Assembly (NCBI GenBank): GCA_947176675.1
Contig: CAMWRN010000001.1
Span: 1-49,399, forward strand
Reading direction: 5' to 3'
Source of the DNA: an uncultured Clostridia bacterium
GTDB lineage: Bacteria; Bacillota; Clostridia; Oscillospirales; Ruminococcaceae
Length of the DNA stretch: 49,399 bases
A program made the position numbers and the translations under genes. The notes beneath the pieces are model-generated. The model made no database searches. It saw only the letters and a program-made list of their open reading frames with translations, and was not told the origin of the DNA. Below are positions 32,720 through 33,018 of the stretch, piece after piece; within the stretch, counting starts at the first letter, position 1; every line of letters begins with the position of its first letter.

Positions 32720-32749
32720 TTGACATATTTATTCATAATATGCTATAAT
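32720..32749 (+). promoter_or_regulatory. Promoter of the type I toxin mRNA
   Basis: TTGACA (32720-32725), 18 nt, TATAAT (32744-32749) with a TGc extended -10. Confidence 0.65.
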
Positions 32750-32756
32750 ATGACTG

Positions 32757-32789
32757 TTGTCGGCTTCTTCCGCAAGGAAGGAGGTGGAA
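32757..32789 (+). promoter_or_regulatory. Conserved structured 5' leader that occludes the SD
   Basis: TTGTCGGCTTCTTCCGCAAGGAAGGAGGTGGAA. The CTTCC-GCAA-GGAAG hairpin runs into the GGAGG SD. The 33 nt are identical at 30393-30425. Confidence 0.55.
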
Positions 32790-32792
32790 CTC

Positions 32793-32888
32793 ATGTCATA
32801 TGTCATTTCTTTTTTATTGTCCGTCGCGGCGAGTGTGGTTGGTAACTACATAAGCAAGAGGTTAGACGGTAACAAGCACGACAATTAA
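32793..32888 (+). CDS. Fst/Ldr-like type I toxin peptide (31 aa, single TM plus charged tail)
   Basis: Hand-translated as MSYVISFLLSVAASVVGNYISKRLDGNKHDN*. Below the ORF-track size cutoff. Has an SD, strong promoter and terminator. Confidence 0.6.
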   Translation: MSYVISFLLSVAASVVGNYISKRLDGNKHDN

Positions 32889-32905
32889 CCCAAAATTTCC
32901 CCAGC

Positions 32906-32945
32906 AAACAAAAACCCCTAAGTCACTACCTTAGGGGTTTTTGTA
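32906..32945. terminator. Bidirectional rho-independent terminator
   Basis: CCCCTAAG-N7-CTTAGGGG (32915-32937) with AAACAAAAA before it and TTTTTGTATTT after it. Confidence 0.8.
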
Positions 32946-32984
32946 TTTGCGTGTCCTCACGGAACATACATCATTTCTTTTGTA
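32906..32984 (-). ncRNA. Candidate antitoxin sRNA (about 75-80 nt), convergent with the toxin mRNA
   Basis: Has its own promoter at 32990-33018 and ends at the shared terminator. Contains AGAAAUGAUGUAUG, which is complementary to toxin codons 2-6. Confidence 0.45.
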
Positions 32985-32989
32985 CTTTT

Positions 32990-33018
32990 ATTATACACCA
33001 CGGAATTACTTTTGTCAA
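32990..33018 (-). promoter_or_regulatory. Promoter of the candidate antitoxin sRNA
   Basis: On the minus strand: TTGACA (33018-33013), 17 nt, TATAAT (32995-32990). The -35 overlaps the XRE stop codon. Confidence 0.55.

Follow-up and report, generated by a model that had tools for sequence, protein, structure and literature searches.

What is encoded by the short segment of DNA that lies between a nadB-like gene and a gene of the XRE family in an uncultured clostridial bacterium of the Ruminococcaceae? The segment, about 300 bases at positions 32720-33018, belongs to contig CAMWRN010000001.1 (assembly GCA_947176675.1), of which 49,399 nucleotides were analyzed and are referred to here as the window. 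A preliminary description had proposed that these bases carry a type I toxin-antitoxin module like the par locus of plasmid pAD1, with a 31-amino acid (aa) membrane peptide in the place of the toxin Fst and a convergent small RNA (sRNA) in the place of RNA II. I arrive at the same answer in a fuller form: judging from its sequence, the module is very probably a chromosomal type I toxin-antitoxin system of the Fst/RNA II (par) design. The observations that carry this answer are the anatomy of the locus, the way in which it is conserved and covaries in a set of more than 120 loci, selection on the coding sequence, and homology to Fst/par.

Par-like loci have convergent promoters, a bidirectional terminator that is the sole overlap of the two RNAs, and direct repeats (DRa and DRb) that provide complementarity at the translation-initiation region, as well as a 5' stem-loop over the Shine-Dalgarno (SD) sequence and a sequestered mRNA 5' end (PMC7472228, PMC8594479). 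The peptides of the Fst/Ldr superfamily consist of a transmembrane (TM) helix, a conserved tryptophan and a charged tail, with a motif P/D/S/T-xxx-G(C) (PMC7472228, PMC8594479).

Anatomy of the Locus

The promoter of the putative toxin mRNA occupies 32720-32749 of the plus strand and consists of TTGACA (32720-25), an 18-nt spacer and an extended -10 element, TGcTATAAT (32741-49). The promoter of the putative antitoxin is on the minus strand at 33018-32990, with TTGACA (33018-13), a 17-nt spacer and TATAAT (32995-90). Both had been claimed in the preliminary description, and both are where it placed them, each agreeing with the consensus at 12 of 12 positions and each kept in the closest relative found, a metagenome-assembled genome of Ruminococcus sp. 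(locus L008). The antisense promoter is 3' of the open reading frame (ORF), 230 bp downstream, and convergent with the toxin promoter. Perfect sites of the form TTGACA-N16-18-TATAAT number 6 in the window, as against 0.04 expected from shuffled sequences.

With the start of transcription put 7 nt past each -10 box, at G32756 on the plus strand and A32983 on the minus strand, the predicted toxin mRNA (the analogue of RNA I) would extend from 32756 to 32945 (+), about 190 nt, and the predicted antitoxin sRNA (the analogue of RNA II) would cover 32908-32983 (-), about 76 nt. The mRNA would end at a terminator common to both, a bidirectional intrinsic terminator at 32910-32942 made of A5 (32910-14), CCCCTAAG (32915-22), the loop TCACTAC, CTTAGGGG (32930-37) and T5 (32938-42). 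The stem with its A-run and T-run thus appears as first described, and in L008 compensatory changes preserve its pairing (CCCGAGG/CCTCGGG). The two RNAs would overlap in the terminator only, the sRNA stopping short of the ORF, which ends at 32888. Both are predicted to fold stably, the mRNA with a minimum free energy (MFE) of -62.5 kcal/mol (z = -4.25, 200 shuffles) and the sRNA with one of -28.5 kcal/mol (z = -5.9 vs shuffles). The predicted fold of the sRNA presents, in order, 13 unpaired 5' nucleotides, a small hairpin and the terminator.

The ORF itself runs from ATG 32793 to TAA 32888 (+), as claimed, and encodes 31 aa, MSYVISFLLSVAASVVGNYISKRLDGNKHDN. Residues 4-21 are hydrophobic and form a single predicted TM helix, which is followed by a polar, charged tail, KRLDGNKHDN. 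Its relatives, described below, have the consensus MxxxISFLxSVxASVVGYYICKWLDGxxx and a length of 25-35 aa, and the general description of a peptide of about 27-35 aa with a single TM helix and a charged C-terminal tail fits both the window peptide and this consensus.

Predicted Antisense Pairing and Its Conservation

The region around the start codon (32790-32813, +), the presumptive target of the sRNA, contains two short sequences that recur downstream: DRb, CTCATG (32790-95), which includes the AUG, and DRa, CATATGTCATTTCTTTT (32797-813), which covers codons 2-7. The downstream copies, at 32956-32981 (+), are DRb', CTCACG (32956-61), and DRa', CATACATCATTTCTTTT (32965-81), and their minus-strand reading gives the predicted seed of the sRNA. 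The preliminary description had reported a duplex of 14 pairs. The duplex is real and was understated, since nucleotides 3-19 of the sRNA form 17 contiguous pairs with mRNA 32797-32813, 2 of them G.U (RNAduplex), and a second block joins CGUGAG of the sRNA to CUCAUG (32790-95), with the start codon inside it. There are three differences between the repeat copies, and all of them leave G.U wobbles in the RNA duplex, as is likewise the case in L008. Between the window and L008 the repeats differ solely by changes that preserve wobble pairing. The two blocks correspond to DRa and DRb of par.

Comparative tests were performed on 126 distinct loci of the family, with an alignment of 88 peptides and a set of 72 leaders. 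The score of the best ungapped match between the start region of a locus and the 200 nt downstream in the same locus is 13 in the median, whereas matches to non-cognate downstream regions have a median of 7 and a 95th percentile of 9. The repeat sequence therefore varies among loci and is matched within each. Relative to the start codon, the repeats of the family occupy positions +7 to +23 and -8 to +4, and the downstream copy is found 50-110 nt past the stop codon. Most of the 126 loci have a minus-strand promoter with at least 10 of 12 consensus positions and a spacer that is nearly always 17 nt. Its -10 box ends about 10 nt (median; quartiles 10-16) from the downstream repeat, so that the sRNA would carry the complement of the repeat at its 5' end. 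Transitions inside the repeats are more often compatible with wobble pairing (38) than incompatible (14; p = 0.001), a bias to which T-richness may add. The same layout of the module was seen in all family loci inspected.

The Leader and the Predicted Folding of the mRNA

The leader hairpin that the preliminary description had running into the SD sequence is present as well, and is longer than was thought. The predicted stem-loop (32764-32784, +) is made of CTTCTTCC (32764-32771), the loop GCAA and GGAAGGAG (32776-32783), and may also be written CUUCUUCC-GCAA-GGAAGGAG. Its 8 pairs bury most of the SD sequence GGAGG (32780-32784), which is 8 nt from the ATG at 32793. The leader is the same in L008, where the match begins at the second predicted nucleotide of the transcript, and in a homologue from a phage contig (L007). 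Over the family, the MFE structure of the leader pairs 80% or more of the SD sequence in 60 of the 72 loci, compared to 44% after shuffling of the upstream part, and the anti-SD sequence co-varies with the type of SD: CUUCC accompanies GGAAGG, and CACCCC accompanies GGGGGUG.

A second predicted structure connects the two ends of the message. The last codons, AAGCACGACAAU (32874-32885, +), pair with the 5' end of the mRNA, GUUGUCGGCUU (32756-66), in both the MFE and the centroid structures, and across loci the 5'-3' duplexes are more stable when cognate (-12.5 kcal/mol) than when non-cognate (-10.2 kcal/mol; p = 2e-9).

Together these elements suggest how the module might work. The strong promoter would give a message of about 190 nt, from which a 31-aa membrane peptide with one helix would be translated. 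As long as this message is free, its SD sequence would be buried by the 5' stem-loop and its extreme 5' end paired to the last codons, so that translation would be low and the RNA probably stable. The convergent promoter would give an RNA of about 76 nt whose overlap with the mRNA is confined to the bidirectional terminator, and the unpaired 5' end of this sRNA would pair (6 + 17 bp) at the start codon and codons 2-7, blocking the entry of ribosomes. Were the sRNA depleted, the peptide would be synthesized and inserted in the membrane, and growth would be arrested. The service rendered to the cell could be stabilization of the region, a response to stress or defense against phage.

Coding Selection and Homology to Fst

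The ORF is conserved in homologous loci and evolves under purifying selection, a point that the preliminary description had left to such a comparison. The ratio of nonsynonymous to synonymous substitution rates (dN/dS) in the family is about 0.15 over 4111 pairs, and variation shows a 3-nt periodicity, with entropies of 0.71, 0.31 and 1.14 at the three codon positions. L008 is 85% identical to the window over nadB and the module, the module likewise being beside nadB.

The family was compared with eleven bona fide Fst loci from plasmids of Enterococcus, Lactococcus and Lacticaseibacillus. By hhalign, the profile of the 88 family peptides matches Fst over the full length with a probability of 94.6%, an E-value of 6.9e-8 and a score of 32.9. 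Controls gave lower scores: 7.8±1.9 (maximum 13.3) for 100 column shuffles, 8.9 for the reversed alignment and at most 20.1 for shuffles confined to the TM segment. When the two families are aligned on the tryptophan, S10 and S/G14 of the family coincide, by my reading of the sequences, with the P and G of the Fst motif PxxxG. The corresponding residues of the window are S10-VAA-S14, and a G at the last position is found in a minority of the family.

The nucleotide sequences agree with the peptides. An nhmmer profile built from nine par loci matches some family loci, and does so colinearly and with the correct strand and placement (L004 with E 4e-7 over HMM positions 16-295; L099, L100 and L083 over positions 9-293). 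The Rfam family SpF66 (RF02442), which matches a real Fst locus, also gives a weak full-length match to the window mRNA, and one of 38.6 bits to a relative, L002 (gathering score 42). A match of the window to the Rfam family EF0408_EF0409 (E 0.0011) was discounted as evidence, because it is mostly based on the terminator.

The par/Fst-like reading is accordingly supported by coding selection, cognate repeats, the antisense promoter, the leader, profile homology and the nucleotide profile. As far as its sequence tells, the module belongs to Fst/par as a divergent member, one that falls outside the family as current models define it.

Points to Be Weighed against the Par Design

Several results weigh against assigning the module to this design. 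The locus and, as far as found, its sub-family are known from sequence alone, and the transcripts, their ends and the toxicity of the peptide are predictions. No curated model of Fst reaches threshold: PF13955 matches none of the 88 family members and NF033608 matches 7, weakly and below its cut-off (best E 0.011), and the window peptide gives no match to NF033608 or to any Pfam model, although all 11 of the real Fst sequences match both. The Rfam families RefA9 (RF02844) and RefB11 (RF02848) match real par loci and not family loci, and nothing in Rfam reaches the gathering threshold in the window. The par profile used with nhmmer finds relatives of the module but not the window itself. I do not see a YUNR U-turn in the sequence of the terminator loop, UCACUAC, a motif that is not universal in the RNA I terminator loops of par-like loci (PMC7472228).

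Two further results come from folding. RNAalifold applied to 36 leaders returned no consensus structure, because the MAFFT alignment mixes the two leader classes present in the family; leaders were instead folded one by one against a shuffled control, with the outcome given above. The duplex of sRNA and mRNA has an energy of -30.4 kcal/mol, reached by 2/1000 and 0/1000 shuffles, and so compares well with shuffled sequences, the control that the preliminary description had in mind, but unrelated sites in the window attain similar energies (about -30 kcal/mol). Energy alone is therefore not decisive, and the comparative data are.

The last of these points concerns the peptide. Codon 23 of the window (32859-32861) specifies arginine (AGG), in place of the signature tryptophan (TGG) present in 90% or more of the family, and the conserved tryptophan between TM helix and tail, general in the family, is consequently absent from this copy. 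It is possible to see in this a relic, whose RNAs are perhaps still made but whose peptide has been rendered non-toxic by W23R, with no toxin-antitoxin function left in this chromosome. The replaced residue is nearly invariant, and L008, with a peptide 97% identical to that of the window, has W at position 23 by a single A/T difference. Moreover, a decayed second copy of the module is found only 2.3 kb away, so decay does happen in this genome. The copy (30372-30459, +) was found as a blastn self-match of the window and then by sequence and alignment. It has the -10 box TGaTATAAT, 35 nt of leader that do not differ from those of the module, and an SD sequence, and its ORF, from ATG 30430, is cut short (MDYLSSFLI*). 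Downstream of it there is neither a terminator nor a repeat nor an antisense promoter. It abuts the 3' end of a 203-aa ORF and is about 230 bp from rpmH.

The rest of the module is intact, with both promoters at 12 of 12 and the SD sequence, ORF, repeats and terminator all there, and its coding sequence differs from that of L008 at only 2 of 93 positions (one synonymous, the other the change of R to W) while the flanks are about 85% identical. The same substitution recurs in other intact loci (L015, L029, L081 and P0005), and Fst of pAD1 carries V at the position of W and is nonetheless toxic (PMC7472228). I therefore regard a relic as unlikely, and a toxin-antitoxin module of the par design as much the better description. 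The arginine may be tolerated or may be attenuating, in which case the toxin could be a weaker one.

Size, Spread and Annotation of the Family

The preliminary description had recommended a search for homologues, and they proved to be numerous, so that the module is one of hundreds and not a singular case. A search of translated DNA in a set with one genome per species found at least 310 relatives, mostly in Lachnospiraceae, Ruminococcaceae and Oscillospiraceae. Searches of the same kind found relatives on 42 viral contigs, in 3 phage records and in 40 plasmid records, 30 of these from Staphylococcus (pSERP, for example). The plasmid records also include small plasmids from Waltera, Mogibacterium and Mediterraneibacter gnavus and one plasmid of C. 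perfringens. Among carriers in culture are Waltera intestinalis, M. gnavus, [Clostridium] symbiosum ATCC 14940 and Pseudobutyrivibrio ruminis. Contigs of 5-7 kb that bear the module (L028, L045, L046, L055, L059, L086 and L087) resemble small plasmids. Some loci are tandem arrays in which every copy has promoters and repeats of its own, with at least 6 copies in 3 kb at L056, 3 each at L063 and L072, and 2 at L103-L109.

Protein databases give a different impression. A word-index search of proteins with a 43-aa extended form of the ORF found no match, phmmer found only 5 relatives amongst 1.84 billion protein representatives, all without names, and the consensus as a query against 5.8 billion protein clusters found 58 proteins, of which many are longer than the peptide, most being incorrectly extended, and none has a Pfam domain. 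The sole descriptive name encountered is the "nitrate reductase" of P0015 (NCBI nr), a 47-aa, N-terminally extended protein from a Lachnospiraceae metagenome-assembled genome, evidently a misannotation. A profile search of sequences in the PDB gave no match, and a literature search with peptide strings of the family turned up no paper. Fst-like ORFs in Clostridiales were reported in 2010 (PMC2887945, PMC6563280), and those of C. bolteae and C. asparagiforme, together with the ones on staphylococcal plasmids, may perhaps belong to this same sub-family. The kind of system is well known. The interest lies mainly in how large the unannotated clade is and in its possible link to the toxins of C. 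difficile.

Type I toxin-antitoxin systems systematically escape annotation, and the present family, captured by no Pfam, NCBIfam or Rfam model, gives a measure of the gap. Its alignment and the rules of its architecture could seed models for use with the phages, cryptic plasmids and chromosomes of gut Firmicutes. For this genome, the gain is one probable addiction or stress module beside nadB, and a decayed copy beside rpmH.

Genomic Setting

The window is chromosomal DNA, with dnaA, dnaN, gyrB and gyrA at 0.2-10.5 kb and rpmH, rnpA, yidC, mnmE and mnmG at 30.1-22.3 kb. The preliminary description had put the module beside rpmH and the origin block. This is roughly right, in that dnaA and mnmG are within the window, but rpmH (30011-30145) is 2.6 kb away. 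The dnaA-dnaN-gyrB-gyrA block (224-10469, +) and the rpmH-rnpA-yidC-mnmE-mnmG block (22300-30145, -) face each other across about 12-20 kb, unlike the usual order around oriC, where the neighbors are divergent, and the 203-aa ORF, nadB and the toxin-antitoxin module are found just past rpmH, at the place where dnaA would be expected. The four perfect promoters of the window outside the module are at 11087-11115 (+), 12447-12474 (+), 30219-30248 (-) and 43643-43671 (-), the third of them positioned to drive rpmH.

On its other side the module adjoins a gene for a 77-aa protein of the XRE/HTH_3 type (33015-33248, -), whose stop codon abuts the -35 element of the sRNA promoter. The gene lacks its own terminator, and the transcript made from it would run across the entire antitoxin sequence up to the shared terminator, making it a potential second source of antitoxin. 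Considered as a partner of the module, the XRE gene was ruled out because it is not conserved beside it: an XRE-like gene lies within 1.5 kb in 7 of about 128 loci and is syntenic in none.

The need for the XRE transcript to read into the module also lends something to the idea that there is no toxin-antitoxin system here at all, and that the ORF is the gene of a small membrane protein under ordinary cis-antisense regulation, or that the RNA is a plasmid-type counter-transcript (ctRNA), or that the region is simply the 3' untranslated region (UTR) and terminator of the XRE gene. The toxicity of the peptide is, after all, predicted, and the predicted antitoxin RNA of L007 (686-761, -) scores 40.8 bits against the Rfam family ctRNA_pGA1 (gathering score 45, E 1.6e-5), a likeness that may be a structural resemblance or may reflect ancestry shared with plasmid counter-transcripts. 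The peptide, however, is homologous to proven toxins, and the enrichment of the family on small plasmids and phages and its occurrence in tandem arrays are as in type I toxin-antitoxin systems. The neighborhood of L008 is different, diverging beyond 33052. An identity as ctRNA is rejected for the lack of a rep gene nearby, the match being below threshold, and an ORF that is under coding selection. All in all, an explanation that dispenses with a toxin-antitoxin system is highly improbable, and the par-type module remains the preferred one.

Comparison with Known Systems

The only NCBIfam model matched by the window peptide is NF047374, which describes type I toxins of C. difficile like CD2517.1 and CD0956.2, and the module might for this reason be assigned to that family in preference to Fst/par. 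The match of the window (15 bits, E 0.025) falls well below the cut-off of 60 bits and is confined to model positions 2-17 of 51, the TM helix. It extends to 59 of the 88 family members (best E 2.7e-4), all of them far below the cut-off. Membership in NF047374 calls for at least 60 bits, a length of 30-56 aa and a lysine-rich C-terminal region, and the end of the window peptide, GNKHDN, is not rich in lysine. Six toxins from C. difficile phages (L141-L146; MDNFLLNILASVIASLIFYIISKLF...) were taken for comparison. With these the family profile gives an hhalign probability of 92.7% and a score of 32, as against 9.3±2.3 (maximum 16) for shuffles, and 5.3% with a score of 14.7 when bona fide Fst is put in place of the family.

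The toxins of the C. difficile pairs (CD2517.1-RCd8, CD0956.2-RCd10 and others) resemble the present family in the N-terminal TM helix (..FLLNILASVIASLIFYIISKL.. vs ..SFLLSVLASVVGYYICKWL..), and the two have in common an occurrence on phages and a leader that sequesters the SD sequence. They differ in size, the C. difficile toxins having 47-53 aa, and in the tail, of which about 25 aa, rich in lysine, are missing from the window peptide. They differ also in the design of their RNAs. In C. difficile the genes of toxin and antitoxin are convergent and overlap each other (PMC6563280), and the phage loci have an inverted repeat between 5' UTR and 3' UTR and no direct repeat of the start region, unlike the window, which shows the par design in every detail. 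The window is therefore of the par type, and its membership in the C. difficile family is very unlikely.

A more distant connection is another matter. The type I toxins of C. difficile have been described as without homology to known toxins (PMC6563280), and the family profile fits them and Fst equally (a score of about 32 each). As a large unannotated clade of Fst/par, the family may thus form a link between the Fst/Ldr superfamily and the toxins of C. difficile, a suggestion that I consider possible rather than probable and that depends on short hydrophobic profiles. If the link reflects common descent, then one ancient toxin lineage would have been rewired between two antisense designs, and two toxin families now held to be unrelated would be unified.

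The remaining systems are members of the Fst superfamily in the wider sense. Ldr/Rdl of Escherichia coli shares its signature (TM helix, tryptophan and charged tail), and among eight other toxins LdrD gave the best hhalign match to the family (score 22.1, 67%). In Ldr/Rdl the antisense RNA is opposite the 5' region and regulation is like that of hok (PMC2887945, PMC7472228); the antisense promoter of the window is 3' of the ORF, hence a different arrangement. PepA1, the toxin of SprA1/SprA1AS in Staphylococcus aureus, belongs to the same superfamily as the present family but has no detectable direct relation to it in sequence (hhalign score 15.8, 14%). Its antitoxin, SprA1AS, overlaps the message's 3' end, yet it works on the translation-initiation region by means of a separate 5' domain (PMC8594479, PMC4885055).

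The closest parallel is with par of pAD1. Common to the two are the convergent promoters, the shared terminator as the only overlap, and an antisense RNA that stops short of the ORF; oppositely read DRa and DRb, through which the 5' end of the small RNA is predicted to pair with the AUG and the codons next to it; a stem-loop near the 5' end, predicted to bury the SD sequence, and a predicted pairing of the 5' end near the end of the ORF. The peptides agree too, at the level of the family, in a length of about 30 aa and in having xWLD and a charged tail behind the TM helix, and the family has small residues where Fst has the P and G of PxxxG. The likeness extends to details of sequence, since past the terminator Fst loci and the present family both read TTTTGTG, DRb, a few nucleotides, DRa and then, after about 10 nt, the -10 box, and the leader of one family locus (L019), GGCUGCUUGCCCCGAAAGGGGGUG, is nearly the same as that of an Fst locus of E. 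faecalis (L134). As for differences, the window peptide has S-xxx-S (S/G across the family) in place of the P-xxx-G of Fst, the motif YI(C/S)K comes in addition, R stands at the position of W in the window, and the U-turn motif of par is not seen in the module. The predicted 5'-3' helix is built from the last codons in the module and from sequence past the stop codon in par. The hosts, finally, are gut Clostridia, their phages and small plasmids, together with the plasmids of staphylococci.

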